A DNA stretch of 64,000 nucleotides from Psammoneis japonica (taxonomy: Eukaryota): the NCBI GenBank assembly GCA_008632985.1, contig QPGO01000004.1, positions 62,001 to 126,000 of the forward strand, written 5' to 3'. Both the position numbers and the translations under genes were made by a program. Each line of letters starts with the position of its first letter. Positions within the stretch are counted from its first letter, which is position 1. Shown here in pieces: positions 10,753-42,300 of this stretch. The notes beneath the pieces were generated by a model. The model did no database searches. It saw only the letters and a list, made by a program, of their open reading frames with translations, and was not told where the DNA came from.

Positions 10753-10896
10753 CACGTACTATAGGAATCGCGCGCTGTTTGTGGCTGCTGGTTCTTTGCT
10801 TTCCTTCGGAGCAATTGCAGTGATGGGATCAACGCTGCGGAAGTAATTCTTGCGTTTCGAATTCTGAAACTCGCAGAAAATCAAGAGACTAGTGAG

Positions 10897-11877
10897 CTAG
10901 TTCTGCTTCTTCTTATTGTCTATTGCCTGTACAACCGAAATTTCTTGTCGAGCCATGGCAAGTGCGACCGCGCAGCCAGGACCAAGAAGCGGCGTCAGAA
11001 TGACAGAAACGGCGGCATCGTAAGGATTCTTGGCAAACAGGTAGCAAATTGTACCAACATAATAACCGGCAGTATCCAGTACCATGAAGGCAACAACAGG
11101 ACCTGCATCTGTCCATAGCGCTCCGCGAATTGCAGAAAACGATGCCCCGTACTCATTGATGGCAGTAAAGACTACAAGTGCCCAACCACCGAAACATAAC
11201 AACGCCGAGCCCAAATATATCATTGTGCAGAGCTTGGCTCCCTGTTTAACAGTCTCATCTGTAGTCTTCGGTGTAGTACAAAAGGAGAGTGCCAACGGAG
11301 CAAGAGCGGCAGCGGGGCCAAGGAAGAACGAGACGGTCCACGTCCATGCGTACGAGTCGGTGTCGAGTGCAAATAAGAATATTGTACCTATTGAGAAGCA
11401 CCCAACAATGCCAAGCGAAACAAAAGCCTGCGTCCGAGACACGGATCCTTCTCCTTTGAAAAGCAGATACGAAGGCACCCAGATTCCTGGCATCACGATA
11501 CCAATGCCTATGACGACGGAAAGCAAGACCGTCACTAGCGGATATTTCAATAGACCCCGAGCACCAGCTTTTCCAGCCTCGAGATACATTGGCATTGCCC
11601 CAGGTAGCGCGAGGCATGCCAGAGTTACAAAAATAATCAGACCGGAGGGTTCCTTGGTGAGCTCGAACAGGAATTGAACGAGCATACAGATGAAGCTCCC
11701 TCCAAACATGGGCTCAAAGTCGTGCAAGTCACTTTCTTGAAAGAGCTCTTCAGAACTACAGCTTTGAATGACCGGCTCTGCCCACTCTTTTGACACGGCT
11801 TGCGTTGCAACAAATGCTGCAATGCCGGTGGCAACACCGACTAACACGAGGAATTTTGCCGTCCAAGACAGCGGCAT
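10897..11877 (-). CDS. Multi-pass membrane protein of unknown function
   Basis: 326-aa ATG ORF with an N-terminal hydrophobic segment and about 7-8 further hydrophobic stretches. Confidence 0.8.
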   Translation of the reverse strand: MPLSWTAKFLVLVGVATGIAAFVATQAVSKEWAEPVIQSCSSEELFQESDLHDFEPMFGGSFICMLVQFLFELTKEPSGLIIFVTLACLALPGAMPMYLEAGKAGARGLLKYPLVTVLLSVVIGIGIVMPGIWVPSYLLFKGEGSVSRTQAFVSLGIVGCFSIGTIFLFALDTDSYAWTWTVSFFLGPAAALAPLALSFCTTPKTTDETVKQGAKLCTMIYLGSALLCFGGWALVVFTAINEYGASFSAIRGALWTDAGPVVAFMVLDTAGYYVGTICYLFAKNPYDAAVSVILTPLLGPGCAVALAMARQEISVVQAIDNKKKQN

Positions 11878-12559
11878 GGTGATTTAAAAAAAAGAGAGAG
11901 ACGGAGAAAGTCACAACCGAATCAATTGATACTTAAGAACGCCACTGGAGCACAGCAACCAACAACAATCGAAATCTCTGGACGATGGAAAATCAACAGG
12001 TGCAACAACGCATAAAGGATTAAGGCCGATGCATGTGAACTTGATCTAAAAAATGAAATAAAACGAAATTCCAAAATACCCGAATGGGCTCGCGCGGCCG
12101 GATCGATCGAGCGATCTGGATGGAGTGCGTGATGGCGACAGGCGCACACCATGGACCAGCGAACAGCAAACAGGCAGTGCACAATGCACAAACCATCCAG
12201 CACGACTGTCGCTGTTGCTGCTGTCGTTTCTACTTTTGAGATTGCTTTCTATTTACAATGGCGCCAAAGAGGATTACAGCAGTGGATGCGAGTGGTGAAG
12301 AGATCAAACAAGCAATGTCAAGCCAATGTTGAAGAGCTCCGCACGTGGATTTCACGGGCTTGGAGTTCGATGGTGCTTGATCAATGGTGACGGATGCAAA
12401 ATGTTGAGCTTCTAGTCACTTGAGGATGGTGGCAAGCACACATTTGATCCGCAACAGCAGAGAGACAGATTCAAGCAAGAATCTGGTGTTGACCGGCGTG
12501 TCAAATGGGAACCGGACGGGAGCCCATCGCTTCGCCCGAACTCCGCTGCCAGCCCAACA

Positions 12560-13830
12560 GCTTTGGTGGAGCTCATGATGAAGGAAATGCATCTTGCAAC
12601 CACAAAAGCTGACAGAGCAATGCCACAATGCTCACTGCCACATGTGGGAAATTTGGAAAAGGACAGATTGACAAAAGAGAATCGCTTTCAGGATTTTCAG
12701 GGACGTGCTGGCGAGGCAAGGGTGCTCACCAAAGAGCAGCAAAACAAACCATCTGTGACAGACAACGAGCATCAACTCATCACCTGCCTGATGCCATTTC
12801 TCGAAGATGTTGGCAAAGGCACAGCCAGGGACACCACTTTCAATTCAGAAAAGCACAAATGGATTGAGGCCAGTTCCGAAACCACCGTTTGCAACGAAAA
12901 GCCGGACTTGATTGTCTGTCACCCTGCCATCGCCAATCCAGACCACCGTTCAAGTGCAGGAAAGACACAAAGTTGAAAGAAATGCAAAAAAGCAGAGACA
13001 AATTTGGTGTCCTTTCCCAATGGAAACTTCTCATGATTTCATTGGTCTGACTTGTGAGGCCAAGCAACATGTCGGCGATGAAGGTTTGGCAAGGTGATCA
13101 ATTGTGGAAAAACACATTTGCTTCAGAAAACATGGTGCTGTGACAACAAGACTGCTCCTCTTTGACAGAAAAAAGTTCTGGCCAGTCAACACTGCAAAAG
13201 GAACAGTTTCAAGCATTCAGACCTGCAGGTGCACTGCAGAGGGATCCAAGACTTTGTGTTCTTGTGGGTTTTTGTTTGCCAACCCCCTTTGGCAAAAGTT
13301 TTGTGCAAGGCTTGCCAGTGTTTTGGCCTCAATGTTGGGACAGATTCCTTTTTGGTGCTGGTGCTGCATTTGGGTGTGCATTCCATGATGCACAGTGTGA
13401 GACCAATGGCAAGGAAATTGCTCTCAAAGTTGTGGTGAAGCAAGGAGGCAATGATGTCATGGAGTGACTGGAGTCCAAAAAAGAAAAAATGATTGCGGCA
13501 AAAGAAAAATGCCCAAGTCATGTTGTGGGTGTGGAGTGTGACAGATTCCAACTGTTCACAGATGGAGCTGTTTTGCTTCTGTTGAGTGTTGGAGAGCACT
13601 GTTCAAAGCTTGCGCTGCAAGACATTGTTGATTTTTGAATGCCCTGCACAGCAGTGGCATCTTGTGTGGCGTTGCATGCCTGGAAATGTCATGTGATTGA
13701 TTTTGCTGTCAGCTCTTTTGCACATGGGCAAATGAGCAGAGATTCCAAGCTAAACCTTCTGTTGACTTGCGTTGAGGAAAGTTCCAACTGTGCAGCATCG
13801 GCTGACCATGCAGCGTCGGCTGGCCAATGA
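12560..13830 (+). pseudogene. Decayed Crinkler-like PD-(D/E)xK nuclease + protein kinase gene
   Basis: Frameshifted pieces: KPDLIVCH...LTCEAK (REase-like), FGAGAAFGCAF (Gly loop), EIALKVVV, ALHSSGILCGVACLE (HGDxR-like catalytic loop) and VIDF. Confidence 0.65.
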
Positions 13831-16800
13831 TGCGTCAAATGACCACTGGTGATTTTTTTGCTCTGTCCCCATGTTTTACAACTGATTTCCTGCCTGCCTT
13901 GGATTGCATCTGAGAGGGGATTGCGTGACCCAGTGCAGTGCCATTTGATCAAAAAATCTCAGCCGTCACATCCAGACAAATGGTCCAGGGCTTCAATTCG
14001 CAACAGAGTGATCACACTGGTTGGGGCCAAGCAATCTTTTCAGACATTTTCTCAATTTTCAACATCAGCTGCTTGCCCACAAGAGCCCTGCGTGTGTTTC
14101 TGTGCACCCCCTCCTTGCACTGATGCCTCCTTTCTCAGATGGTCTTTTGCTGGTTCCCCCAAGGCCACCCTGGCTGTTTTTGCCTGTGGTGCACCCTTGT
14201 TTCAGAGTGACAACCAGCAATCATCATTGGAAAGCAATGGGTGTTGATGCCTTGTGGCCCTCATCATGCTCACTGCATTTTCTGGCAATTTCCCACCAGC
14301 TCTCCAAACTTTCCACACAGGACCTGGCACAAGCTCCACATGCTTCAGAAACAACTGCCAATGGCCACTTTGTCAACTCTTTGCAAACTGCTTCCATCCA
14401 TGCCTGTCACCTCTCAAGGAACTCTTTTTCTGCTGTTGGCCAACCAAGCTCTTCAACTTGTGCAGCAGAGAGTGCTGCCTCTGCAGTGGAGCTTGAGGGT
14501 GTGGCTGCACCTGAGTCAACTTTTGGCATTGCTGCTTGACAGTCATCTGTCTGCTGCACAGATCAGCATTTCTGCACAAGATTTGGCATCATTTCCATGT
14601 GTGAAAAACATTTCTTTCATGCCTTTCTTGTCACATTGTCAATGCTTGTCTCCACCATTTTGCACCTGTGCAAGTCTTGAACATCCCTTCTCTTGTTTGC
14701 TTGTTTGCTGGCTTGCTCATCTCTCTCACAGCTCCATGTGGTGAGCCATTTGCTGCTTTCATTCCAGCACTCAAACACACAAAGTCCAGTCTGTTTTTGG
14801 CAAAAACAAGACCTTTTCTTGGAAGCAGGAGCACTTCTCACTCAGATCTTGTGCTGCTTTTGCACCCTCATCTATGTGTGACCATCCTTTGCTGTTGCAG
14901 TGCAGGTGCTTTGCATCCAGCCCAAAAGAAATCAATGAAATTCCCCTCATGTTTTGCACTTCAGCCAGCTGTCTTTGGTGGGCATCACTGCAAGGTCACA
15001 CTGCAACTGGGTGAGGCCATGACCAGCAGCTGATCCCTTGCCCCTTCTGCCATGTCAGCTGGTGGTGTGCTGGAAGCATGGGTCAGCCTGTGCCAGACAT
15101 CCTGGGCAGTGTTGCAATGGCACTCAAGGTTGGTGGACATTTTTTTGTTTTTCATGCACATTTTCTCAAGATCAGCAGCCATGCATGTGTGTTTGTTCCA
15201 AGCAAGATGCAGCAGAGAAGATCATTTGCAGGATTGGCACCAACCCAGCAAGAAGGGTGCAACTGCATGACTCTTTTCAGTTTGCTCTGCAGTTTTTGAA
15301 GTGTGCTGAATGGTGTGAAAGCCAAGAGGTTGTTTTGTCTGGCTTGTCCAGACTTGGATGTGCCCAGTGACAGCAAGCTTTCTTCTGACCCCCCAGAGTC
15401 AAGATTCACACAAGCATGTGGCCAGCCATGACAAGCCAATGCCATGGCTTCCTTCCTCCACTCAAAACACTGGCTTTGCTGCACCAGATCCACTGGTCAG
15501 AAGAGTTTTTGATGTAACCTGTGTTGAAAGTTTTTGTGTCAGTCAACAAAAGATCTCATCCAGAAAATCCAGGCACAAGGGTGCCGTTGATGACCTGAAG
15601 AGCAAGCTTGATTGCACCAAAAAGACACGAGCAGAGCCAGAAGATGACAAAATTGTCTGGAAACTTGGTCCAACCAAGTGCATTTTTGCAGAGGTTTTGC
15701 AACTGCATTGAGCAAGCCATGGGTCAAGGGTGTTGAGTTGATTGGTGGCTGTGTTCAAGGCAGACTCAATGGAAAAGAGCTCAAGTCTTCTGGCAGAGGT
15801 GCGCCAGCCACATGGGTCCAGTGCATGAAGCCCCACCTGAGGTTGATGAAGATCTTGATCTTTTGGCTCATGAGAGAAAATGCAAGCCATGCTGATGAAG
15901 CAAAAGCAAAAGCTTGCTTTGCCAAGCTTTGCAGGTTTGGCAAGACTGATGTCAAAGAGTCTTGTCAGCACCAAAGGCATTTTGTGCATTTGAGTGCCCC
16001 CAAAAAGCAAAAAGTGGGGGTGCTGGCACACGCAAAAGTGCATTGTTTGCCATTTGATGCCAGCAGGTGAGCCAAAAATCTGGGTGAAAGTTGAGGCAGT
16101 GCAGTGCTTCCTTCAAGCTGCCAAGGTGTGCTTCACCCAGATTTGATCTGAACTGGCTCAACTTTGTCACACAGATCACCAACAACCTTGTCATGCAACA
16201 GTCCCAGCCATTTCTTGAATGAGCCTGCTTCCTTGTTGTCAGCTAGCGCCTTGGCTTTGTCTGCCTTCTTGTGGGTCAATTGAGTGCTGCAAAGAAGAAG
16301 GCCGAGGAACAAAAGTTGAAGGTCCAAGGGCAAAGCTGAGCATGTCAAAAAAGCACAAACTTCTGTTGCTTGTGGCTGCTCACAACCAAACAGCTGAGCA
16401 AAACCAACAGATGGCTGCAGGATTTGTTGTTGCTGTCACCACCATGGCAGAGAAAGAGTGGCAAGAAGTTGTGTGCTCAAATGTGGAAAATCAAGGAAGG
16501 AGGTTAATTGATGAGACCCCCCCATCTTGCAAACACATGCAACAGTCCAATTGGGTGGTGCCAGATTGGCTCTCAGCATCCTTGCGCAGACGGCATCAAA
16601 ATGGAGCCACACAGCCAATGGAAAAAAGGAAAAGACATCTCCAGCAAATGACATGTCCCTGATCAATTTTTGAGACCTGGCACCGGTTTGATGCAGCAAG
16701 CTCACCATGAGAAATTCTCCCAGACTTTTGGGATGCTTGCATGCAGGAGCATGAAATGGGGTGCAAGTGTGCATTGGGGGTTAGGATGGAAGGCACCAGT

Positions 16801-17424
16801 TTCCAGAAATCTTGCGACTCCTCGTGTTCAGCACCATTTCCAGCAAAGCAGTCTTGATTTTTTCAAAAAAGTGCTCAATGAGTTCCTTTCATGACCATCA
16901 TGAAGTGACAGCTTGAGCAAAATGCTTGCAACCTTGCAAGACATGCCACAGCTTTTATTTTCTACGTTGACCAATGTCATGACTGGTCTGTGCCTACAAC
17001 AGCACCGGTTCAATCAAAAACACTGCCTTTCAAGAAGTGTCAATGAAACTAAGTGCAACAAAGCTCCCCACAAGCATTTCCCAAAACCTGCTTGTTGACA
17101 TGCTCTGCATCTCACCCCACCTGACAAGAGTTGACGATCATGTTGCCATCATTCAAACACCAGGGTCATGGACTGAATGACAAATCTCTCAAACATCTGT
17201 CGAAGAGGAAGGGGCATGCCGAACCACATCGCCCATGGCCTCGCTCAAGAGACTCTGCCAAATGAAACAAACTTGGGCTCTCCACTTTTTATGAATTTGG
17301 ATCACATCATCCACAGAATGGTGCTGTTGGTCCTTGGGACTGAAACATTTTATTTTGTCAACACTGCGAGATGGTTTGCAAAGCTTTGGCAGCATGGAGC
17401 AGTGCTCATGCTGGGGTCAGTTCC

Positions 17425-18474
17425 TCACCCAGTGCCCGCAAGATGGGATGGATCCAGTCCAGAATTTCTGGCAACAAACAAGGGCTTGCAATCACCAAGG
17501 CTGTCCATGGTGCATTCAACAATCTTGCGGATCCAGAGCACCTGTGGGGTGGGTGGCTCTTCACTGTGGTTGAGATCGCGACCCTCCAGAAGGTTTTCTA
17601 GCATGCGCCATGTTTGAGGATTGTTCATGAAAAGTTTTGCTTGTTCTTCCCTGAGTTGGGGGCCACCAGCAGCATCCATCATGGCAGCTTCTAACCAATC
17701 AATTGCACCATCTTTATGAATCCAACTAGCACCCAGCTCACCCTGTTCTTTCTTGTTGAGCTCTTCTTGCACCACTTCCTGCATGTCACGAGCACATTGG
17801 CACAGCTTCTTGCACGGTCGTGGATTGAGCTTTGGGTCATTCTCAGCAATGCAAGCAGCCAAATCAGCCATCGTTTGAGCCATGCCATCTGCCATGCTCA
17901 TGCAGGTCGTCTTGGTCATTTCATTCTTGAACTTTCTCATGGCCTTGGTGATGTCTTTGTCAATCTTTTTCGATCCAAGTTGTTTGCAGTTCTTCTTGTG
18001 AACTTTCCAGTGAGCCTTCTGGCAATCAACACCACAATGGCAAGCCACCTGACAGCAAGAGCACTTGAAAAATTTTGTGACAGAAATTGTTGCTTGTCCA
18101 TCATTGTTGCCCTGTGGAGAGCAATGGTCGCAGTCTGGATTCCAGCATGCATTCTCACACGAGCGGTGCTTGTTCTGCGATTTGTCATCCAAGCCATTGT
18201 GCTCGTTCAGCGCAGCCACAAGCTCTTGCTTCTCCACCATCTCCTCTGTTCCAGCTCCAATGCCACGTTTGCAACAAGCTTGCCAAAGTCCCGGGTGCTG
18301 CATTGTTCCATGTTTGTGGTTGACATGAGCTGCGTCTGACTTGCTCAAAGTGCAGTGCATCGTGCATGTTGAATGTGGAAGCCGATGATGAAGATGGCAT
18401 TGCATCATTGCATGGTTGATGGTCTGATGGTGTTTTTTAATGGTTGGGGGAACCACCTGCTGCACTGGTGGCAC
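17425..18474 (-). pseudogene. Mutated MYND zinc-finger gene
   Basis: CWNPDC...FKCSCCQVACHCGVDCQKAHWKVHKKNC (~17985-18150) is the MYND pattern with Arg->Cys and Tyr->His at consensus positions. Confidence 0.75.
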
Positions 18475-18799
18475 GCGCGTGTGAGGAGTTCACGTGCAAC
18501 GTCGCCTGGTGGCACGGGGCGGGGAGGAGCAGACGCGGAGCAAGGGTGGAGCTGAATCATGCAGGTGGGAAAAGGGATGGATTTCAAATTAGGGTTGGAG
18601 AGTTGGGATTGTAGTTTGGTGGAGCAGTGGGTCCATTGGTCAGCAAGTGATTCAGTGATTGCAAGGCTCAGGCTTTGAAGACCCCACTGTGATGGAGTGG
18701 AAGCATGACTGTCGGTGTCAGTCATTGCGTGCGCCGTGTGGAAGCACTTGAAAGCATCTGTTGTTGTCCGATCCTCTGCACTGTGCAACTCACGCACAC

Positions 18800-20410
18800 A
18801 TGACAGATGCAATGAAGAACAAGCACTTTGCATGTCCAGCATCCATCAACAACAAGCAAATGTCAAAGCTTCTTGTGCACCATTGTGTCTTTTGTTTTTG
18901 CAGTTGCCCCATTGAAAAAAAAACTGGCAGTGAACAGTGCCTGCACTGAGCACATGTCTGACAACTGCCAAGCCTCAAGTGTGCATGTCCTCTTGTCATT
19001 GCACAAGAAACACCAGTTGCAGCAACGTTGCTGCAAATGATGTGTGGGAAGCAAGCACTGTGTTTGTGTGCACAAATTGTCCAATGCTCACACCAGCTTT
19101 GTCAGAACAGAAATGGAGCATTTGGTTGTCAGACAAATCATGAGCTGGTGGGGGCAGATGTCCCCACAAACTTCAAACTTTTTTGTGCTGGAAGCATGTC
19201 TTGAGAGACACAAATGGGCACAAATGATTGAAAGAGGCTGCACAATCTGTCACAACTGCAGCTGAGAAAGAGCTCAAGAGAGGTGGCACAGGTGCTCAGT
19301 GATGTTCAGCTCAAGCCTGTCCATGTGGTCAGGAACAGACTCACCCATGACTGCATTTTTGATGCACTTGTGAATCTTGTCGGGTTGGAGGCCACCACTG
19401 CACCAAGTCAAATCATTGTTTTGCAAGCTCTGGTGGGCTTTGCGTTGTCAACAATTGGAGCAACCAGCCAAGGCTGGGCCAAGTGCAATCAAAATCATTC
19501 CTGGCCTGCAAACATTGGTCAACAGTTTTTCCAACTGCTGCCAAGTGGGGCGCGCCATGTTGATCATCACTCCACTGTGGTTTTTGAAGAATGGTTCAAA
19601 TGTTCTTTTTTTGCAAACTTGCATGAACAAATGTGTCAAGAAAGGGTGCGTGGATCAATTTTGGACTGCATTCATCTGTTGTTGTCCCATCCAATGCTCT
19701 GCATTTTGTGCATGTCCATCAATGACAAGCAAGTGTCAAAGTTTGTTTGCCATCACATGCCCCTGTTGTTTGTGGGTGCCCCATTGTCGTCCAGCAATGA
19801 GCACATTGTTGGGGAGATGACTCCTCATGGATGAGCAAAATGGTGGTGAACAGCACCTGCACAATGCCTGACACAACAGCTGCTGAGTTTCAAATGCATG
19901 TCCTGTCATTGCATGAGAAATGACGTCATTGTCAAGAGCAACAAGTCAGCTGCAAATGTGGAAGCACTGTGTCCACACATGCAAATTGTCCAACACCCAC
20001 ACCAGCTTTGTCAGAACAGAAATGAAGCACATTGTGGTGATCAGACAAATCACACATGGGATGTTCCCATGAACTTTGTGGGCTTTTTCCAGAAGCACGT
20101 CAGCATGAGACAAAGACAGGCACAAATTGTTGAAAGAGGCCACACAATCTGTCACAACCACAGCTGAGAAAGGAGCTCAGTGGGGATGGCACAGGTGCTC
20201 AGTGATCATGGTTGGCTCAAGCCTGCCTGTGTGTGGTGGTCAGCAACAGACTTGTCCACAATCACCTTTTTGGTGCACTTGCAAATCTTGTGGGGTCAGC
20301 AGCCACTTCCGCACCAACCAAATCATTGTTGCAGGCCCTGGCAGGCTTTGGCTGTGTTCCCAGCGGTTGGAGAGCAACCAGCCTGGACAGTGCCAAGCAC
20401 AATCAAAATT
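18800..20410. repeat. Diverged tandem duplication, period ~900 bp
   Basis: cacaccagctttgtcagaacagaaatg at ~19089 and ~19998; gaaagaggc..cacaatctgtcacaac at ~19230 and ~20132; ggcacaggtgctcagtgat at ~19285 and ~20188. Confidence 0.85.
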
Positions 20411-21850
20411 GTTGTCCCTGTGAGATGCCACCACAGGCTGAAACTCCAAATGGAACAAAACAAAATCAGCATGCATCCCAAGTCAAACAATGTTGGCACA
20501 GAATGATGTTGTGCTGGTCATGTCATTGTGACAACAAAACATCAAGTGCACACCTTGTTTGCAGAGATGGAAAAAGATTTTACAGACACACTGCACAGTG
20601 GCCTTGCAGGGCAAACAGAGGGTGGCAGAGCAACCTCACACAGCAAGGCAAGGCAAGAAACAAGAGAGGCAATCAACAATGTGGGGTGTGCACCTTTGGC
20701 TGTGCCAACTTCATTGGAAGGAGAAACAGAACACAGGTGTGGACAAAGAAGTTGGCTTGGCAGCAGTGTTTGTGGCAGAAAAAAGTTGAAAGCAAGAGTG
20801 CAGGTTGGCAATGGCAAGCCTCCTTGTGCTCAAATTGTGCAAATTTGCACACAGGCTTTCAATGCTTGTGCACTGCAGGACAGTGCTAAAACAAGAAAGA
20901 TGGGGGGATTCCAGAGGACAGCCTTGCATGACAAACGCAGTTGAGGAGACACAAGAGTGCAGACAAAGGCAAGCAGGGAGGGAACAAGGTGAAACAGGCA
21001 GAAGCACAAACAATGGTGGACCGCAGAAAATGCAGATGAGATTAAAATCACATGCAGCTGCACTGCATGGCCTGCAAAACATTTGTCAGATGAAAAGCCA
21101 CAAGAAGCACAGGTGGTGTGTGCTGAGGTCAACAAGACAGTTGGTATCTGCAACAATGCAAAAGAAAACAAAAATCCTTTTCAAGTGCAAAAAATGTTTG
21201 TGTTTCAAGAATGCAACAAAGCATTGTGTGCATTGCAGGATGAACAAACTGTGCGACATCAAGCTGTCAATGCCGGTCCTCACATGATGTGCGCACATTG
21301 GCTTCTTGGTGCACTTTCAGATTTCCCACATGGCTTGTTCTTCTTTTTTTGCTGCCAGCACACTGTGGCTTGCTCACATGCAAATGAGCCAACAATGCCA
21401 TGTTCCAGATGTGGTGGTGAGTGGTGATGGAATTTGGGCTGTTGCCACTGTCACTGGAAGACGCTCAAGAGTGCAACACCTTGTTGGCAACAGCTTGGGA
21501 GAAGGACGAGCTCTGTTCTTGTTGCAAAGAATGTTGGTGTGACCTTTTGAGGACCACAATGTGTCGCCAGCTCTTTGATGCCAACAGGCTCCAAATTTGC
21601 CCATGCACTGACAAGCCTTTGCATTCTTTTTTTGTGCTGGCAGCCAGTGAGAGTCAGGTGCCAGGTTTTGCACTGTCTGCATGAGCCCAGCACGTCTGCA
21701 GATTTGTGTTCTTGCTGGATGCTTGAGAGCTGTCAAAAGAGACTGCATCATTTTAGAATGCCATCATTGCATTTTCAGTTTTTACAAAGTCAGAAGCTTT
21801 CCATGATCTGGAAGCTGCTCTTGTCAGTCTCAGTGTGGCACAAAAAGTCA

Positions 21851-22577
21851 GAAAATTCTCAAAGCCCTTCTTTTCAACCTCATCTTGAGCTCTCTTCTGC
21901 TTGTTGTGCCTCCTTGAGACATGGGCTCATGGTGTTTTTGATGACTTGGGGACCAGCATGAGAGACACAAATCAATGATGTGTGCAAGTGATCATGAAAG
22001 ACAGCACAGCTTCTGCCACACAAAACAGAGTTGCTCAAAACCCAGCGGGGTGCTGTCCAAGCAACTTTTGCATGAGAGCAAGAGCACAAGAGGATCTGAT
22101 GTTGTGAAATGACAAAAGTTTGAGGCAGACACATCTGCACTGCACTCACTTTCACCACCAGAAGATGCCATTGTTGTCATTCTGCAAGCGCGGTGAAAAA
22201 AATCTGAGCAGGAAAAATTCTCAAAGCCCTTCCTTTCAACATCATCTTGAGCTCTCTTCTGCTTTTGTTTTGCCTCCTTGAGACATGGGCTCATGGTGCT
22301 TTTGATGACTTGGGGCTGGCATTGGAGACACAAATCAATGATGTGTGTGAGTGATCATGAAAGATGACAAAACTGCCACCCAAAACAGAGTTGCTCAAAA
22401 CCCAGTGGGGTGCTGTGTCTGACTTCTTGCATGAGCGAGTGCACGAGCGAGGAGAGGAACTCTGATGTTGTTAAATGACAAAAGTTTGAGGCAGGCACAT
22501 CTGCATTGCACTTACTTTCACCACCAAAAGACGCCATTGTTGTCATTCTGCAAGTGCGGAGAAAAAAAACTGAGGCA
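21851..22577. repeat. Tandem duplication, two ~360-bp units (21851-22210, 22211-22577)
   Basis: Both units run aaaattctcaaagcccttc...gcctccttgagacatgggctcatggtg...caaaacagagttgctcaaaacccag...ccattgttgtcattctgcaag with high identity. Confidence 0.92.
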
Positions 22578-22869
22578 GAATCACAAGCCATTTAGCCAAA
22601 ATTCGAGCTAAAAACAGCAAAGGAGACCCCCCTTAATTCGTGACTGAAAATTGAGCACCCCTTTGAGTCACGGGTTTCAGGTGGGGGTTCGTTTCATTCT
22701 GTCATCTCATTTTTTGCTTTTTGGCGAAAACCGGCGACGGCGACGACTTCTGGCCATAGGCTGAACTACGGAACATCTCTTGTTTGTTTCATTGACCAAC
22801 ACTCTGTGTCCTCTACTCAATGCTTTTTCAAGCGTATTAAAAACGAGTACACTAGGAAATTATTGAGAA

Positions 22870-23241
22870 ATGGCGACCAAGGTGAGCAACGAGGGTGACG
22901 AGTACTTTCTCAACGAGGATGAGGCGCAAAACAGTGAGATGGCAGCGGTAAAACGCAAGCAATCGATCGTTGTGATTGCAATCGTTTTGTGTGCTGTGGC
23001 TTTTGTGGGGATAGCGGTAAATGCTTTCAGGAACAAGGGACTATCACAGGAATCGGACAGTATTTTTACAGTGGATAGCTCGAAGTACGGAGTACCCGAC
23101 GAGTGCGACGGATACACCGCCTTCTGTGCCGAAAGCAAGACCACAGGCTCAGTCCAATGCAGCTGCGGAGATTATCTGTACAAGTGGAGCGAAGATGGCG
23201 GTGAATGGGCCTTGTACAGCTACGATGCATATGAAAACTAG
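22870..23241 (+). CDS. Small single-pass membrane protein with Cys-containing C-terminal domain
   Basis: 123-aa ATG ORF, TM IVVIAIVLCAVAFVGIAV; normal dinucleotide composition resumes here. Confidence 0.65.
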   Translation: MATKVSNEGDEYFLNEDEAQNSEMAAVKRKQSIVVIAIVLCAVAFVGIAVNAFRNKGLSQESDSIFTVDSSKYGVPDECDGYTAFCAESKTTGSVQCSCGDYLYKWSEDGGEWALYSYDAYEN

Positions 23242-23711
23242 GAAAACGATCGACAGTGTCCGCGAGTATCCCTTGCGTACAGTGGGTACTGTAGCAGAAG
23301 CATCATGACATGCTATTCTTCGTCTCTTGTCTTGGGGATCACGAACGCTTCTGAGGCATTGAAGTGACGCACATGCTCAAACGTTATAATTGTTAATAAG
23401 GAACTCTCTACCGGTGGAGCCGAGGTGCGTTACATTCTACTGTAGAAATGCGACCCTTACATTTGAAGCATGCCAACTTGCGAGACACATGAGATGCTAG
23501 ACATGCTGGCGATCACAAACCTCCACTCGAAAACCTGAACCTTGATAAGGATACTTCATTCATGAAACTGCTAGAAAATGCCAGCTCGCCAAGCACATGA
23601 TGCTATCGACAGATGTACCGCTCTCTCCACGAGAGAGTTACCCATTTCACTCGAAGTTGCGAAATTTTGGCTACAACCCTTCAATACGTGGGCGCTCTGG
23701 GCCGCTGAAAA

Positions 23712-24784
23712 ATGAGCAAAAGCGGCGAGACTGGAGGAGAAAACGAGGACCAAATCACGGAAGCTTTGGACGCAGTGCTGAGAGATCAGCCGGAAGACTA
23801 TGATGAAAGGGTTCGCTTATTTTTCGACACTGACGAGGGCCGGCGCTCATGGGAGGCTATTCTTCAAGATGGCGGAGCCTTCAACGTTCAGGCTTCAGAA
23901 GAGACGCAACGCTCCGGCCATTTGCAGTCTCAGGAGGAGCACGGAAACGGCGAGAGCGTGGCGGTAGGTGATCCGGTAAGTCGATGGACAGCGTGTACAA
24001 CTGCAGTAGGCTCGTATCCCCACTAAATAGCACTTCGTGTCCTTGCCGACATCATGACGGGCTTGCCCTGCTAAAGCCTGTCACAATGAACCATCTAATA
24101 CAGCAGTTGAGGTTGTTTCTAGAGAACAACGACGCGTTGATCCAGCAAGCCATTCGTAGCAACGAGTTTGGGCGGTGCGAAGTGCTCCTTCCAGACAGTT
24201 TGGGCAAAGGAGTACCAATCACTGCAAAAAGCCCGAAACGCAAGTTTGTCACAAGTACCACCACCAAGAAAAAGCGAAAGCTGAAGGATCCAAGTGGATC
24301 GTATTTGTGCGGTCGTTGCGGCCAACCAAAAAGGGTCAAGTTGAAAGGAGGCGGAACGGGGCCTCACATCTGCACGAAGCCTGGCAAGTACCGTTTCGAC
24401 AGCAACAAAGCCAAGGCACTAAAGAAAAAGGGCATGGGGAAAACAGCGTCTGCTTCACTCGTCTCCGCTGTCAAGGCAAAGGGGGGAAGTCGTGGTTCGT
24501 ACATGTGCGGCCGCTGTGGCGTCCCCAAGAAAGGCCATGTCTGTCCCTTCCAGCTTGAAGAAGATCAGGAATCAACAGATGATGACGAGGACGAGAACTC
24601 CAACGAAGAAGAATACGAGGATTGGGACGTGGGAACGGTATGTCATTCAGTGCTTGGCTTTCTTGTTTCGTGCTGTTTGTCTCATTTTTCTCTTGAACGT
24701 ATGACATAGTTCGACGAGCCCGACGATTGGCCTTCTGGTCCAGACGATCAAAATGATCAAGGCCCGCCCATGGTTGCGGTCTAG
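23712..24784 (+). CDS. Protein with two C-x2-C...H-x-C zinc-knuckle-like motifs (introns ~23976-24103 and 24638-24709)
   Basis: YLCGRCGQPKR...GPHIC and YMCGRCGVPKKGHVCP, a basic NLS-like stretch and an acidic tail. GT-AG introns restore one frame ending ...PPMVAV* at 24784. Confidence 0.7.
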
Positions 24785-29856: not shown

Positions 29857-30960
29857 TTAGCTGATACCCAGAGAGTTGTCGTTGTAGGTCGTCACCCCAA
29901 CAGGCAAGGATAACGTCGTAGAAAATAGACCGGAAATCGATTTCTTGGATCGCCGGAACGGTATCCCACTAACAAACTCTTCGACTAATTTACATTCAAA
30001 CTCCACCCCTTTGCTAAATGGTTCATTCCAAGAGACTTCACAATCGAAACCATGCAACGGAAGCACTTCGCAGAATGACTTGGTCAGACATCTTATCAGC
30101 AGAGTCACAACAAAAAGAGCTTCCCAACCATCTCCTGATTGTATCTTTTGCGTTCGAAAGCTCTCCAACTGTTCGCAGATAACTCCGAGACAGCGTCGCA
30201 CCGTTACAGGGAGAACTGGTAGTCTGGATAAAGAAAGAAGAAGTTGGGTCATATGATAAGGTATCCAAAGAGCGATCGGCGTCTTTTCAATAACATCGAC
30301 GTCCATTAATTCACGAAACATTTCAGGAACAAGAGCATAGTCCCCAGCTAACATCGTCATCAACAAAGTTTCAACTTTCTCAAGTGAAACACCTGTGTCA
30401 ACGAATTTCTGTATCGCTCCTTCGCGTCGCTGATGTGGAAAACTGTTTTACATTGCACCGTAATAGAGCAGGATTAATCCCAGGTACAGAGCCGAATGGG
30501 GGCTTAAAGAAGAAGGATAGCCAAGCAAACTCTTGGATCGGGAAAGATTTCGTTCAAGGGGAAGCCTCCTCGTTTTCACTTCTCTCACTTGGGGAGTGCA
30601 TGAAAGATGTAAGCGTATGGTTCACAGAAATCGCACGTGAGAAACGTAGCGAGATCCTCGCTCATGGCAGCCTCCAGCAAATTCAGCTCGTCAATTAGAA
30701 GAACGCACTGGACACTGCCCAACCAGTCTGTCACATCTTCTTTCTTGACAACATTAGACGCAGCAAAAAGGTTGAAACCCCCTGCGTCAGGCTTCCCTCC
30801 TAGAGAGAGAGCGCCGCGAATAGAATTCTGCGGCACAGGCAGGGCTTCCAAAGGACTGTGTTTTTCTCTCAAAGCGATGGCGGCGTCTGACCATTGACCC
30901 TGACAGAAATGATTGACGCATCAGTCTTGTTGTCCTTGTGGAGCGCCCAAGCAATCAAAC
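29857..30960 (-). pseudogene. Frameshifted, 5'-truncated Crinkler-like P-loop NTPase gene
   Basis: Pieces IAWALH...SIISVRVNGQTP, CVLLIDELN (Walker B-like), SPSER/EVKTRRLPL, SALYLGLI, WIPYHM and SGDGWEALF lie in different frames. No Walker A found; sequence switches to unrelated block-2 DNA near 30960. Confidence 0.6.
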
Positions 30961-33330
30961 TTGTCAAAAATCTTCTTTGAAATTGTTGGAAAGAGAGCCT
31001 TGCACTTTCAGGTGGAGCTCTTGTCAACATGGGCATGTTCACATTGCCACTCATGTGCATGCCTTGAGGGAACAGCAGCAGGTGGTCTGTGACGTGCAGC
31101 AGTGGTTGAGAGGGTGATTCAGCAATTTTGGCTTGTGTGCCTTGAACCACTTGTGTTGCCAACTGCATGGTGGGTGCTGAAGTTGTGGTGCGAACAACAA
31201 TGAGCATGGCACCTCTTTGCATCAGGGCACTCACACATGTGCTTTTCGGCAAGTTTTTTGTGTGTGAGAAATCATGGTTGACTTGAGGTTTTGATCAGTG
31301 CTGGAAAGCCAGCACATGAGTTCCATTCACAATCACTTCTGGCACACATTGACCTTGCTTGCTGCTGCAAATTGTGCTCTCTGGCATGATGTCTGCACAG
31401 TCCAAGTCAGTCATGTCAATGGCACACAAATTCTCTCTCGTCAGGAGTGCAGAAAGCAGCGCTCAATCCAGGGCAGGTCCTGAAAGACTGTTGAAGGCAC
31501 AGAAGAGCGTGCTTCTGGAAGGTTGTGACACAGAGTTGCAGGGAAAACCAGAGGGTGGTCTTCAGGTGGCCATGTCACAAACCCTGGCTCAGAGCAGCTC
31601 AGAAGGGACCCCAAGCTGGTGGAGAGCTGTCCACCACCCAACGGGACATTGCTGGCATGCACACAGTTTTGTTCCCCATTGACAACTCCACATTGGATTT
31701 GGCAACAGAGGTCTGGCCATGACATCACAGAGATCCTTGAAGAAGGGAGTCAAAGAATTCTTGTGCTTTCAAAATGCTGACACCCCAAACAATGAGAAGC
31801 AAAAAATCAGCTTTCAATCACTCGCTTTTTCTTCTCACATCAACAACAACAAAGTTGACAGTCAACTGTCATGATCGATCCCATCAGGCAACCAAAGAAC
31901 CACAATGACATGTTGCTGTGATGCTGCGACCCTTTCTTGTTGAAGCTGGCTTTGATGGCATCTTTGAGCCAAGCTTGGCATTCTTCTCTTCAGCTTTGGA
32001 CTTGGTGCTGGCATTGGCATCTTGCTGCACTGCTGAGCTGGCCCTGACTCAGTCTGTTGCAACAATGCAAGCCTCAAGATTGCCATGGTCAAGATCTCAG
32101 ATGGAGTGCTGAGTGCACTTTTTCTGTCTTTGTTTTTGGAATGAGCATGCCCCTTTGACCAATCTGATTGGAGGAGGGCACCCATGACTTGTTTTGGTCT
32201 TTCTGACTGTGTGGCTCATCAAACCTTGGTTTTAAACTGTTCTCACTCATCCAGCTCTGTTGGAGCAGGGACATTGATCACTGTGACTGGATCATTTTGC
32301 AGCTTGGAAAAGGTCCACTCTTTTTTTGCCCACCCACCACACCCAAGGACAAGCGCTCTTCTTGCTGCAATTGACCCAGGGAGTCACTGGAGCAAGAAGG
32401 TCAAGACAGGAATTCCACGTTTGCTCCTTTGAAGACCCTGGCTTTTATGAAGGGAAGCAGGATCTGGTGTTGTCTTCAACTTTGAGGCCAGCATTGTCTT
32501 GCTGTTTGTGACCAGTGCAGTCAAATGCTGGAGGTCACTCCCAATGGACTGCTTTTCAAAACACGCCCGAGGAGCACTGGTTTTTTCTTTTGGCAATGAG
32601 CCCTTGTGCTGCACACAGGACCCTTTGGAGGGTGGGTTTGGGACCCCTCCACCCCCTTGTGCAGAGTGGAGCTTGTGCACCAAAAGCTCTCCTCCATGAG
32701 ATTCCCAAGCACTCCAATGTCAAGTCACTTCTCAGCGGTTCTTGGCTGGCTGGGATGTCAAGGGCTCATGCCAGGGGCGGGACTTTGCGGAGTGGTGCCA
32801 GTTCGGGTTCGTGCAAATCTTCACAAAGATGCATGGCGGAAGCTGAACTCACTGCCATTTGCAACAAGCAACAAGATTGTCTTGCAAAGGATGGAGCAGA
32901 TCTCATGGATTCGGTGGAGGATCATTTGTCACATGGCACGTCTCAGATTGTGAATTGGGCGTCAATGATCAAGCCCCGCCTCAAAGCCAGCGCAAAGGAA
33001 GCAAAGCGTCTCACGCTTCACGGCACATGTTCCATTGCAAGCTGCTTCAGAAGGGCATCACCATCAGGTGATGCCCCAGCCGGCTAGCCCCTTTGTCCCT
33101 TCTGCCGCACCAGCTCAGTGTGCTGGAAGTGTGGGTTGGCCGGCGTCGGCACAGCTGACAATGGAGTGACAGCACTTAAAAATTAGATCTGTTTTTTTTT
33201 TTTTAGTGCCAATTCGGATCCTCCAATCTAGAGAGAGATCGGTGACCCCCGTCATAATGCTTCCAACCACTCATCACAAACAATGAGGATGACGGTTCAG
33301 TCAAGTTCAGTGTTGGGATGCTTCTCTGCT
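30825..33330. other. Hypermutated block 2 (TpA/CpG depleted)
   Basis: By eye no TA from ~30825 to ~32230; few survivors afterwards, mostly TTAA/TTAG/CTAG; Tyr-free overlapping ORFs. Confidence 0.9.
32820..33087 (+). mobile_element. Possible decayed C-terminus of a non-LTR retrotransposon ORF
   Basis: HLSHGTSQIVNWASMIKPRLKASAKEAKRLTLHGTCSIASCF resembles, from memory, the tail of diatom LINE-type RT ORFs (...GxRSIxSYF). No RT core recognised. Confidence 0.3.
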
Positions 33331-33521: not shown

Positions 33522-38136
<4,615 letters not shown>

Positions 38137-38389: not shown

Positions 38390-41300
38390 TCTTAGGGCCC
38401 CGCCGGTCTTTTGGCCAAGTTGTCACGCGCCGCTAGCTCGTCGGTGGCCAGCGTGCTAGAAAGTGGCCCCCCACCTGACAGTGTTGGATGATGGGGTCCT
38501 CCAAGGACGCTTCCCATTGCGCTTGCATCTGGGTCTAGCGTTGAGCGATTCAAAATGCGCCTTGGCTCTGTGGACAAGCCTGTCAGCGCAGTGAAGAACG
38601 CTGAGAGCGGCCGGATTTGCCGGGCTGGCAGATCTCACCCCCACGAGAGGTCGTGCAATGGCAGCTGCTCTCCATGACCTTCGCGCTTCGACTGCTCTTC
38701 TCTGGGAGACCGATTGAAGTGAACACATGGAGGACTCTCTCGTGGAAACTGTCACTTGTGGCTGGGACCACCTGGTCCATTAATTCCTCCTCCTCCACTG
38801 TCACGCCCCCTCCGGCCACCTTTCCAATGTGAGATTCATTGACAACAGCAGTGCCCTGTCCTCCAGCCTGGTGAAGCTGCTGTTCAATCTGAGCAAGCAT
38901 TTTGAGCTGCCGAGCTGTGGCTTCAACATGGTGTTGACATTTGCCAGATGTTGCCACCTTCTCTTGGTTCCAAAAGAGAACACAATGCCAAGAATGCCGC
39001 CACACACCACCAGCAGATTCCTGTTGCCAAGACCTGCCAAAAACAAGCTGGCCTTTTCTTTCACAACCCACCAACTGGCCAGGTGGAGTGTTGAAGAGCA
39101 CTGTCCATGGCAATGTGCAATGGCTCTAGAGGCAAAAACTCCAGCACAAACAGCTGCTTCAGCACCACACACCAGAGAACTTTGCAGAAAAGCTTTCTGC
39201 ACAAGATCCCTCAAAAAAGCCAACAGCGCTGCCTTCAAGCTTCTTCCCAAGACAAAGTCCCTTTCTTGTTGTCACTCTCGACAGATCCACATGAACCCAG
39301 TTGTCTCTGCAGTCAAAGTTGTTGAGAAAACCAGGCTCACAATTGTCTCCCCACCCCCCACCCCCCCCCCCTGCTGGAGCTTGTGGTGCACAGTCATTGT
39401 GTTGTTGCACAAAACTGGGAAATGGGTCATCTGCATCCTCCAACTGATTCCAGGAATTCTCTTGTGAATGAAACCCATTGCACAGCAACAGGAAAGTTGA
39501 CAGTGCATGACTGAATGTGAGACAAGCCTTGTGCTCATGATGAGATGCCTGAAGACAATGGACTCAACTTGTGAAACAGAGGCTGACCTCACCCAACAAC
39601 CATCAATCCTGACCTTGTCAACTCCAAATCATCCAAAAAACACCTTCTGACAGCTCTGATCCCTCAAACAAGCCAACAGTGTTGCTGGCCTCCTTCTTCT
39701 CCACTCTCTCATTGAGGCTCATTGTCAGAGAAGGTGACGACCATGGGAAAGCTTGAGAAGTGGGTCCACATGCCTGTTGATTCATTCCCAGCTTGCTTGA
39801 TGTGAACATCTTGAAAGGCTGCAAACAAAATGTCATTGGATGTCTGATCTTGAAAATCTGCATGCTTGCACCTGATGTTCTGCTTTTTTCCATTTGAGGT
39901 TGCTTGCTTGGAGCAGGACAAGGCCAAGGCCAGTGGGTGGCTGTGGGGGTGGGGGGGTGGAGGAGGTGGCTGTGCAAGAGATTTTGAGTTGTTCCTTCTG
40001 TGGCACCTTCTTCTTGAAAATGCCATCATTGACAGCATTCCTTTCAAGATTGGCGGCAACAGCACAGGCTGCATTTCTTGGGATGTCACTTTCCAGTTTT
40101 GCCAGGCCCAGGTGCAACCACATGCTCATTGATTTCCTTTGCATCATCTGTGGTCAACTCTTGAATTGTTCAAAAGCATGAAAGAATCTCACCCTGCACT
40201 GCTGGATCATCTTTAAATCAGTGGTTTCCTCTGAGTTTGACGAAACAGCTCAGCTGTTCTTCATGCTGCCAGCCATTGTTCAAAGTCTTTGTGGATGAAC
40301 AACAGATGATGATTGATGCTCTTTTGGATCAGCGGCATTGACTGTTTCATCTCAAATGCATGTTCATGAAGACAATGAGACACAGCCGTTCAGTGAAGCA
40401 TCCAATTCATTTGAGGTGAGACTAAAATTTGAAGCAACGGAGGCCCCACACATTTGATTTCAGTTCACTTTAAGCACACAGTTATGAAGAGCCCACAAAG
40501 AATGGAGGGGAACAGCAGGAGGAGGCACAGTGGCAGCTGCAGTGGTGGCAGAGTGGAGCGGGGTAAAAATGGTGGACGCAGGGCACGTTTGGTTGAAGGG
40601 ACAGGGGACGTGGGGGCAGGGAAAGTGGAGGCAAATCAAAGGGCATGCACAGAGAGATGGAGGACCACATTGCAGCTGAGGGCCTGAAGAGCCCATTGGG
40701 AGGGAGAGGCAGTGCGGTGAGCACTGCCAAAGCAGTTGGAGGACAGGTGTTGCTGCGCAGAGTCAGCTGATGGAAGAAGGGCAGATGGAGAGGATGAGGC
40801 ACAGAGGAAGGCGGAGCATGAGGCATCAGAGTGTCAGGAGTCAGAGGGAGAAGACCAGGGAGGCTTGGATTGAGATCAGCTGGAAGAGAATGTAGAGCCA
40901 AAGAGAAGCCGAATGGGCAAAGCATCCAAGGCCACCCAGGTGATCAACGGTGCAAGGGAGAAGGAAGACGCCGTCGGTGTTGAGCAAAGCAACAACAACG
41001 GAACCATCAGCAGTGGGGGTGGAAGGGCCAAGAAACTTCAGCCTCATGCTTGCATGGTGTGCCTCAGTTAACTTGGGGGAAGAGGGAGCAGGCAGACCGG
41101 GGGGGGGGGGGGAGAAGGAGCTTGGGGCACGTTGACGTCGGCTGGAATGCAGTGATGACAGGAAGGGGCCAAAAGCAAGGCAGGGGGGGGGGACAGAAAT
41201 GCCAACATCGGCAGGGCAAAGGAGTGGTCAAGCAGGGAGCAGGTTGAGGGGTTCAAGGTGAACATCCTTGGAGTGGCGACATCGCGTTTGTTTGCACGTG

Positions 41301-42300
41301 CTCAGCTCGTCACGAGCTTTTGATCGACACATGGGTCATGGGGTCTGTGAGGTCATCAGAAAAAAACCATTCTCAACCATTGACAGACTGTCGGCACCGG
41401 TTGGTCTGTCTGCCACATCTCTTGTCTTCTCTTTGATGCCTTTTTCTGATTTCTGACATGCACTTTCTGTTTCTTCACTTTGTTTCCCCCCCAAAGATTG
41501 GAGCCACCATGTCGAAGCATTCCTCCTTTCTGTCGTTCTCCCCCACTCCTCTTGTTTGGGAGGTCATCATTGTCATGATGATGTGAGTGCATGCCCCTGT
41601 GAGCAGGGGCAGAAGGTTTCGATGCTTGTTGTGGAATTCCTCTTGTTCAAGGTGTCCGAGTCAGAAGATTTTGTTCTGACTGTGATGCAAGTGGCTGCCT
41701 GCAGTCAGAGACTCAAAGATCTGTCTGAAGACACCTTTTGTGCTGATCTCTCTCCTGAGTCAAACACGTGTTCTGGTTGCAGTGGGATGAAGTTTGGAGC
41801 ATGCAATTCGTGCTGTTGCAGCTGTGCCCGAGAACGAGGAAACGGCGGTCATCGAAACTGCAAAGAGTTGCTCTCACATTTTCAGCAGGTCACTGGAGAT
41901 GAAATCCCTCCCTGTGCAGTGGCCTCTGATTGTCCCATTTCGTGCCCTCCAGCTGTTCTTGCTCTTCAGGAAGCTGCGGAGGCATTTGTTGTTGGACCCT
42001 TTGAGGATGCTGGCATTTCCACAGGCCAGAGCTGTCTCGATGCCATTGGGACTTTGTTGCTTGGCTTGTTTGGTTGTGAAGGTCCCCACTCGAGGACATC
42101 ACAGGTGGCGAGTTCCCATGAGATTTGTTTCTGAGTGAGAGAAGAAGCCAGGAGATGTGGGGCTTGTTTGCTGTTGGCAATCAGTTTGACATTGGCAGTG
42201 TTTGCATGTGTCAGCAGTCAGCAGTCCACTTCTTCTTGCCCTTGCGTGGCGTGTTTACCGCACGTCCATGCTCCGCACAAATCACATTTTTATTCGCCAC
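38390..42300. other. Hypermutated block 3 (TpA/CpG depleted), probable decayed repeat or transposon
   Basis: TA very rare and mostly in CTAG/TTAA; Tyr-free overlapping ORFs; G/C homopolymers at ~39350-39371, ~39944-39957 and ~41099-41112. Confidence 0.88.
41952..42008 (+). pseudogene. Histone H3-like fragment (alpha-2 helix)
   Basis: AVLALQEAAEAFVVGPFED versus H3 AV(M/L)ALQEA(S/A)EAYLVGLFED. Confidence 0.65.

Follow-up and report, generated by a model that had tools for sequence, protein, structure and literature searches.

Hypermutation directed at TpA dinucleotides has been reported in the chlorarachniophyte alga Bigelowiella natans. In the text of that preprint available to us, 231 of the 302 new point mutations found in mutation-accumulation lines fell in integrated giant-virus and virophage regions, 230 of these 231 were A→G or T→C changes and were all placed by the authors at TpA, and regional mutation rates were approximately 1000-fold above background (10.64898/2026.01.13.699255). 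The same text counts 124 TpA-poor, TG+CA-rich clusters in the B. natans genome, most of them unannotated, and Mettrop et al. propose adenine deamination as the cause, naming a homolog of ADAT2 as candidate and citing DNA activity of the amphioxus and trypanosome ADAT2 enzymes (10.64898/2026.01.13.699255). Here, we analyzed 64,000 nucleotides of contig QPGO01000004.1 (assembly GCA_008632985.1, Psammoneis japonica; positions 62,001 to 126,000 of the forward strand), hereafter the window, a sequence from a probable diatom in which three blocks have lost almost all of their TpA and most of their CpG dinucleotides. An original prediction, made from the letters of the window, had proposed a domain-restricted process in which A:T pairs at TpA become G:C on either strand, in addition to CpG→TpG/CpA conversion, and had known of no described mechanism for it in diatoms; the view that the process lacks any precedent is superseded by the report of the same TpA signature in B. 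natans in 2026.

The three blocks (approximately 12.3-22.5, 30.8-33.1 and 38.5-42.3 kb) were depleted of TA and CG, with TG/CA nearly doubled, and the rest of the window was ordinary in composition. Their extents are as follows.

12276..22471 (no strand): hypermutated block 1; 26 TA inside and TG/CA approximately doubled; TA spacing is normal up to 12275, and TA density is normal again from 22472.
14092..15584 (no strand): CG-free core of block 1, the longest CG-free stretch (14091-15585, 1494 bp), with only two TA (14873 and 15515).
30822..33084 (no strand): hypermutated block 2, directly upstream of a GH2 beta-galactosidase gene; two TA in 2.26 kb; CG-poor core at approximately 30950-32735.
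38537..42255 (no strand): hypermutated block 3, directly downstream of the beta-galactosidase gene; nine TA in 3.7 kb, with thinning from approximately 38458.

Within 12.5-22.5, 31.0-33.0 and 38.5-42.0 kb, 500-bp bins had observed/expected ratios (o/e) of 0.00-0.14 for TA and 0.00-0.55 for CG, with a mean TG/CA o/e of 1.5-2.1, compared with 0.27-0.92 for TA and 0.6-1.5 for CG in all bins outside the blocks. The 16,888 bp over which depletion had originally been predicted contained 57 TA, 261 CG, 1815 CA and 1848 TG, and the remaining 47,112 bp of the window 1842 TA, 2794 CG, 3475 CA and 3284 TG. For closer counting, cores bounded by TA gaps were taken (12414-22472, 30822-33085 and 38782-42256; 15,798 bp in total) and expected counts were computed from the rate outside the blocks. 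These cores held 36 TA where 620 were expected (o/e 0.03 inside and 0.59 outside) and 209 CG where 935 were expected (0.22 and 1.02), together with 1719 CA (1.82 and 1.14) and 1749 TG (1.70 and 1.17), which puts the loss at approximately 94% for TpA and 78% for CpG. Runs free of TA extended over 18612-20581 (1969 bp), 30821-32233 (1412 bp) and 12413-13751 (1338 bp), against a longest TA gap of 191 bp and a longest CG gap of 109 bp outside the blocks; at the outside rate, the probability of 1969 bp without TA is approximately 3e-34. The depletion of TA and CG is confirmed as real and lies far beyond chance. The near-absence of TA had been predicted for these three domains, and the TA-free stretches named then proved exact; the bins and core counts likewise bore out that CG is depleted and TG/CA abundant in the blocks while adjoining genes are normal.

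The gain in TG+CA within the cores (approximately +1196, by arithmetic on the counts) compares with a loss in TA+CG of approximately 1310, and the summed fraction of pyrimidine-purine steps (YpR) was constant at 0.236 inside and 0.242 outside. All other dinucleotides shifted by at most approximately 22%, without depletion of AA, AT or TT (o/e inside and outside the blocks: AA 1.23 and 1.13, AT 0.80 and 0.92, TC 1.00 and 1.14), and GC content was 0.49 inside and 0.48 outside. The predicted process depends on TA→TG/CA outnumbering the other A:T→G:C changes, and the counts do not speak against it, the changes being specific to TpA with AA, AT and TT undepleted.

The same sequence was recovered from reads. 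Contigs were rebuilt from exact 31-letter words of a public run (X1), probably from the same organism, and aligned to 10500-24500 at a likeness of at least 80%; X1 contains 81% of the sampled 31-letter words of 12500-22400. In total, 213 contigs matched this region, and the 107 of them that were less than 90% alike represent paralogous copies. Block 1 was matched over 13673-16457 by a 2801-bp contig (word depth 57.7, 12 differing letters), over 16428-17559 by a 1129-bp contig (34.7, none) and over 18676-21677 by a 3007-bp contig (58.8, 16), and the flanks had depths of 62 with one differing letter (10500-11822) and 58.3 with none (22387-24500). When looked at for TA, these independently built contigs reproduced the TA-free sequence at flank depth, which excludes an assembler or polisher error. 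A second run (X2) gave no cover over 13769-22641 and covered both flanks; no inference was drawn from it.

Over 5,808 bp of block 1 (within 13673-21677), the X1 contigs and the assembly disagreed at 28 letters, compared with one letter over 3,437 bp of the flanking genes. The higher difference inside the block may reflect ordinary non-coding heterozygosity or ongoing hypermutation.

One relic within block 1 could be aligned to relatives:

12377..13788 (+): frameshifted pseudogene of a family with a coiled coil, a conserved middle region and a protein kinase, identified from homologs, tblastn and a residue table.

The open reading frame (ORF) 12416-12973 had 28 homologs, with E values down to 5e-25, and tblastn with these homologs tiled 12377-13788 in several frames. 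Full-length family members carry an N-terminal coiled coil, the conserved middle region and a C-terminal Pfam Pkinase domain (E 1e-9). In the relic, the consensus tyrosine was kept at none of five independent columns, four of which read CAC (His), TGC, TGT and TGT (Cys); a sixth listed column was the same tyrosine in an overlapping frame and was left out of the five. Changes of the CpG type comprised two cases of Thr→Met (ATG), two of Pro→Leu (CTG) and a single Arg→Gln (CAA). Other residues were mostly retained (Phe 19 of 24, Leu 28 of 39, Cys 7 of 7), and the relic also carried frameshifts, stops and many non-YpR changes. The Tyr→His/Cys replacement originally read from gene relics thus holds for the sole relic that can be aligned, at four of five columns. 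Its intact homologs were not equally TA-poor: at nine of nine metagenome loci, TA o/e was 0.44-0.79 and CG o/e 0.80-1.21.

The protein family of this pseudogene is uncharacterized and multi-copy in the genome. By eye, motifs of the middle region (KPDL..CH and CEAK) resemble those of a PD-(D/E)XK nuclease, and a single, very weak Pfam match to Crinkler (E 0.49) was found in the family. Nuclease-plus-kinase modules occur in Crinkler-type effectors.

Two internal duplications of block 1 and comparison with other copies show where and in which direction the changes took place:

19073..19495 (+): duplication copy A, 73% identical to copy B.
19982..20409 (+): duplication copy B, 73% identical to copy A.
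21852..22574 (+): two tandem 366-bp units, 86% identical, with only three TG/CA discordances.

Copies A and B had 40 adjacent double differences, in 18 of which TG stood opposite CA; the second most frequent class numbered three. Such an excess is predicted if each copy independently turned an ancestral TA or CG into one of the two products. The tandem units shared their TG/CA choice at 63 of 66 aligned sites, and the few discordances indicate duplication after most of the erasure. Direction was assessed from the first 40 of 330 variants, 38 of which lie in 12280-12608 and were classified from their contexts. Among these 38 listed differences, the window had TG/CA against TA in other copies ten times, with no case of the reverse, and TG/CA against CG eight times, with one case of the reverse; at positions 12280 and 12284, the TA state was found in five contigs with most of the depth. 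Together with the relic and its intact homologs, these comparisons show that the TA and CG of the blocks were lost by mutation where the DNA now lies, after its arrival. Counts and direction agree with the predicted domain-restricted second process, which changes A:T to G:C at TpA on either strand and accompanies CpG→TpG/CpA conversion.

The products also reveal how the two processes are laid out. Block 1 held 1151 TG and 1139 CA, TG and CA were interspersed, and runs tests gave z scores of +1.9, -0.8 and +0.9, showing that the strand was chosen site by site without long single-strand tracts. A processive single-strand deaminase leaving strand tracts was considered as a candidate and rejected by these runs tests. 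The two losses did not coincide in extent. No TA and 19 CG were found in 12414-12950, and the intervals 32736-33085, 38540-38780 and 41069-42256 were likewise free of TA yet kept many CG, with a CG o/e of approximately 0.4 in the last. The TA-free zone is therefore wider than the CG-poor core nested within it, which makes the TpA and CpG processes separable.

Flanking bases appear to matter as well. Of the 36 surviving TAs, 19 lay in YTAR (Y, pyrimidine; R, purine), compared with 281 of 1797 outside (odds ratio 6.0, p 4e-7). Products in YTGY+RCAR outnumbered those in YCAY+RTGR by 1084 to 752 inside and by 1943 to 1628 outside (odds ratio 1.21, p 0.0012), a skew with the same direction in all three blocks. 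Both suggest that the better target is A before a pyrimidine (5'-TAY) or, equivalently, T after a purine. No interpretation was drawn from a regression of TG/CA gains on the TA/CG 4-mer frequencies outside. The internal duplicates have diverged by 14% and 27%, so the blocks are old. Transitions at the abundant CA and TG should re-make TA, yet there is almost none, and the TpA erasure would therefore be long-lasting or still active.

Block edges were sharp, with the TA loss ending tens to hundreds of bp from neighboring genes. The left edge of block 2 was abrupt (18 TA in 30300-30821, then none until 32233), and normal TA density was back at 22472, 33085 and 42256. As to contents, a Pfam search of 117 block ORFs of at least 70 aa gave a single borderline match, a MYND finger, and detected no domain of transposon or viral type and none of a reverse transcriptase, an integrase or a transposase; read-through of the three forward frames of block 1, with stops as X, returned no Pfam family. 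No relatives were found in a viral collection for two queries, the kinase-family alignment and an ORF with a MYND zinc finger (listed below), and Rfam and tRNA scans of the window returned nothing. Approximately 85% of the block DNA is without recognizable identity. In X1, 11.9-16.1 kb was multi-copy (summed word depth 100-235), and one further bin of block 1 stood out, as listed below. The stretch 18.9-21.7 kb was at single-copy depth (approximately 59) at a likeness of at least 80%, from which old partners may have diverged past detection. The blocks had been described as repeat domains, which is only partly true: 11.9-16.1 kb and 18439-18905 are indeed multi-copy, whereas 18.9-21.7 kb is single-copy and no transposon domain was found. 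The blocks are shown to be non-genic, partly multi-copy DNA, and the left end of block 1 is a dead copy from a cellular gene family.

18439..18905 (no strand): high-copy fragment bin; summed word depth 1167 in X1 against approximately 59 in neighboring bins.
16489..17511 (no strand): polymorphic 1,023-bp segment; one contig (depth 38.4) joins 16488 to 17512 and the segment-bearing contig has depth 34.7.
17428-18489 (-): 354-codon open frame with a borderline MYND zinc finger (PF01753, E 1e-4, at the Pfam cutoff).

The 1,023-bp segment probably represents an insertion/deletion difference between two chromosome copies (heterozygous). It contains eight of the 36 surviving TAs (TA o/e 0.11, compared with 0.03 in the rest of block 1) and may be a younger piece, although insertion and deletion are not polarized; neither a target-site duplication nor terminal inverted repeats were found at it. 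For the MYND frame and for ORF 19232-19831, no homologs were found within the length limits of the search. With only TGA stops possible, the mean open run is estimated at approximately 37 codons and the 354-codon frame is long for chance, possibly a gene that died recently.

Between blocks 2 and 3, the GH2 beta-galactosidase gene (33522-37890, +) is of normal composition, and its best database match is only 52% identical. It was read in three ORFs, with an in-frame stop at 35553-35555 and a frame change near 36382-36437, so it appears either to have introns or to be damaged. The genes flanking the blocks are long and intron-poor, and one carries DUF6824 (E 3e-25), for which Atlas clusters are commonest in Bacillariophyta. 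This domain and the scarcity of introns are the basis for calling the host a probable diatom, one whose annotated proteome is probably absent from the database searched and which is distinct from B. natans. Diverged similarities (67-68%) also link regions of normal composition, namely 5-927 with 2324-3240, a pair in or near a WD40/FG-GAP-like ORF (2170-4509), and 8150-8488 with 43326-43664.

When compared with the B. natans system, the TpA half of this footprint matches TpA→TpG/CpA hypermutation as far as its sequence signature goes, and the second process of the original prediction has a precedent. Both show near-exclusive A:T→G:C change at TpA on both strands (TG 1749 and CA 1719 here), in discrete regions that lie beside normally evolving DNA and leave a TpA-poor, TG+CA-rich, mostly unannotated footprint. 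The host here is a probable diatom, a stramenopile, and B. natans a rhizarian. Erasure here has reached saturation (TA o/e 0.03), whereas the preprint text available to us gives 3.3% TpA for the nucleocytoplasmic large DNA virus (NCLDV) region and a Rho_TpA of 0.45 for the NCLDV genome, and the string 'CpG', the subject of the nested loss seen here, occurs 0 times in it (10.64898/2026.01.13.699255). The targets here include a pseudogene of a cellular family, no viral signal was found in the 117 ORFs, the three read-through frames and the two viral queries, and the process is known here from its footprint and not from live mutations. The flank preference, with YTAR surviving, is a feature seen here. 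What this locus adds is a probable diatom host, saturation, a core of nested CpG loss, the preference for certain flanking bases and a target that is a cellular pseudogene. No diatom report of TpA loss or of A:T→G:C hypermutation was found in the literature searched, with most subscription journals lying outside that search.

Other described systems share single features with the blocks. In the repeat-induced point mutation (RIP) of fungi, C becomes T, mostly at CpA, so that new TpA arises and GC falls. Like RIP, the process here is a transition hypermutation that destroys DNA that is non-genic or duplicated and ends close to genes, but the defining chemistry of RIP is absent: TpA is destroyed, CA is enriched (o/e 1.82) and GC is unchanged. 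RIP also acts only on duplicates, and the targets here are multi-copy at 11.9-16.1 and 18.4-18.9 kb but single-copy, at a likeness of at least 80%, at 18.9-21.7 kb. In the parts of PMC9998398 available to us, the DNMT4 enzymes of diatoms cluster with RID, the enzyme of fungal RIP, and diatom transposons are CpG-methylated. The decay of CpG through 5-methylcytosine (5mC), as in vertebrates and methylated repeats, yields the same CpG→TpG/CpA change with equal TG and CA; it accounts for just the lesser half of what is seen, however, as it leaves TpA alone, and a CG o/e of 0.00-0.12 over kilobases goes beyond its usual extent. APOBEC3 enzymes provide another case of context-specific hypermutation as defence, driven in their case by a deaminase and leaving edited relics in genomes, but they attack C on single-stranded cDNA and produce strand-biased G→A tracts, whereas A:T pairs on both strands are changed here without tracts. 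In dinoflagellates, 5-hydroxymethyluracil (5hmU), a modification of T made by TET/JBP enzymes, is enriched on repeats, with earlier work cited for a TA/TC preference; it is treated as an epigenetic mark, and the part of that article available to us describes no mutational footprint (PMC11572971).

We give an even chance to the reading that enzymatic adenine deamination drives the TpA half of the footprint and 5mC deamination the CpG half, taken together with the parts established above. In silent, methylated chromatin, deamination of 5mC would convert CpG to TpG/CpA, and a separate process, of the same kind as in the B. natans lines, would convert TpA to TpG/CpA through A:T→G:C change on either strand. 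A putative polynucleotide adenine deaminase of the ADAT2/TadA type would be recruited to silenced DNA, would turn adenine to hypoxanthine and would work best on 5'-T-A-pyrimidine. The 5mC origin of the CpG half is consistent with the loss of CG (209 of 935 expected) and with eight polarized changes, against one reversed, among the listed differences. For the TpA half, ADAT2/3, TadA and the adenine base editors derived from TadA all edit an A that follows U or T. The natural targets of ADAT2/3 and TadA are A34 of tRNA, always after U33, and that of TadA is U-A-C; adenine deamination is favored because the need for a 5' T matches U33-A34 and the 3' pyrimidine recalls U-A-C. We know of no established natural role of ADAT or TadA in chromosome-scale DNA mutation.

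Several points weigh against this reading. The signature is alike for A→G on one strand and T→C on the other, and the TpA specificity that places a T before the target A fits an attack on T equally, so that the deaminase is a guess from the signature. Direction comes from a single slice of approximately 330 bp that pools several paralogous contigs, and the flank preference from the 36 surviving TAs and from a product skew of modest size (odds ratio 1.21). X1 is possibly from the same sample as the assembly and so provides no second chemistry. The targets, unlike those in B. natans, have no recognizable viral or transposon origin, and the joint loss of CpG may either set this locus genuinely apart from B. 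natans or come from two unrelated processes that happen to coincide.

An attack on T could come from a dioxygenase of the TET/JBP type that oxidizes T in TpA, together with 5mC in CpG, with mispairing or misrepair of 5hmU or 5-formyluracil leading to T→C. 5-Formyluracil mispairs with G. Since the signature is strand-symmetric, T→C fits as well as A→G, and the flank result also reads as a preference for T after a purine. TA and CG, the two self-complementary YpR dinucleotides, vanish from the same blocks, which one enzyme class acting on a 5-methylpyrimidine followed by a purine could explain at once. The TET/JBP-made 5hmU of dinoflagellates, which like diatoms belong to the stramenopile-alveolate-rhizarian (SAR) supergroup, is enriched in transposons and silences them, according to the available part of PMC11572971. 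Set against this, TC is barely shifted (o/e 1.00 against 1.14), unlike the TA+TC preference cited for dinoflagellates, and the mismatch between the TA-free zone and the CG-poor core argues against one enzyme working on both at equal efficiency. We know of no report of 5hmU or base J in diatoms, for which no search was made, and consider thymine oxidation the main rival, possible but unlikely. The co-location of the two losses would also be explained if T:G mismatches, from 5mC deamination or other lesions, called in an error-prone repair polymerase of the Pol-eta kind, which would insert wrong bases opposite the T of TA. The A→G errors of Pol eta occur at WA motifs; these include AA, which is undepleted (o/e 1.23 against 1.13), so that this candidate of the original prediction fits poorly. 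Moreover, TA is gone where CG remains (12414-12950 and 41069-42256), placing TA loss ahead of its supposed CpG trigger, and the TG/CA products lack the local strand tracts that patch repair might leave. Error-prone repair is thus improbable as the source.

The remaining alternatives place the changes before insertion, in the sequencing or in the origin of the DNA. ADAR-like A→I editing of mobile-element RNA or cDNA, followed by integration of the edited copy, would account for block edges as abrupt as the ends of inserted elements, and ADARs favor U before the edited A, as stated in the available text of 10.64898/2026.01.13.699255. That neighbor preference is loose, however, while here AA is untouched and TA approximately 94% gone. 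Within one block, two duplicates 900 bp apart underwent separate conversion once the duplication had taken place. One target is a pseudogene that belongs to a cellular family, the 117 ORFs and three frames searched contained neither a reverse transcriptase nor an integrase, and CpG loss is left unexplained. In B. natans, according to the same text, mutations arise in the chromosome in place (10.64898/2026.01.13.699255), and we regard editing before insertion as very improbable. Heavily modified DNA that is systematically miscalled, so that TA and CG appear as TG or CA according to which strand is sequenced and the majority call is assembled, could mimic a random TG/CA choice, and the possible common sample of X1 and the assembly would let it persist. 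It is hard to reconcile with X1 contigs from exact words that are TA-free over kilobases at flank depth, with a relic whose frameshifts, stops and non-YpR changes look like real decay, or with tandem units (21852-22574) that agree at 63 of 66 TG/CA sites, which fits inheritance and not random miscalling. We know of no sequencing platform with a miscall rate above 90% for any one dinucleotide, and such an artefact is extremely improbable. Finally, the blocks could be foreign or special DNA that never had TA or CG or from which selection removed them. Practically no weight is given to such a native composition: TA and CG are at normal levels in other copies in the genome and in homologs elsewhere, codons for conserved Tyr have been changed, TG/CA is discordant between duplicates, and the two viral queries had no relatives.

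A broader reading would be an old genome-defence pathway shared across SAR, by diatoms and chlorarachniophytes, in which one chromatin-guided enzyme system with a 5'-TAY preference, still active, erases both TpA and CpG from silenced DNA. It would call for a dual adenine/cytosine DNA deaminase or for an enzyme acting on 5-methylpyrimidines before a purine, and we put it forward tentatively, as a doubtful extension. If true, no natural DNA adenine 'base editor' serving eukaryotic genome defence would have preceded it, and it would be a mirror image of fungal RIP.

Such blocks matter for annotation, since they lose all TAA and TAG stops and Tyr codons, which produces long false open reading frames and hides the origin of the DNA. 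The locus also adds handles on mechanism, in the nesting of CpG loss, the flank preference, the sharp edges and the cellular pseudogene target, and it moves the question to a group with transformable, CRISPR-ready model species in which reporter transgenes and knock-outs of deaminases, dioxygenases and methyltransferases are routine. Overall, TpA hypermutation had been described once, in the 2026 preprint on a rhizarian alga, and its saturated footprint in a probable diatom means that the process is not peculiar to a single lineage; it may occur widely across the SAR supergroup, to which major primary producers of the ocean belong.

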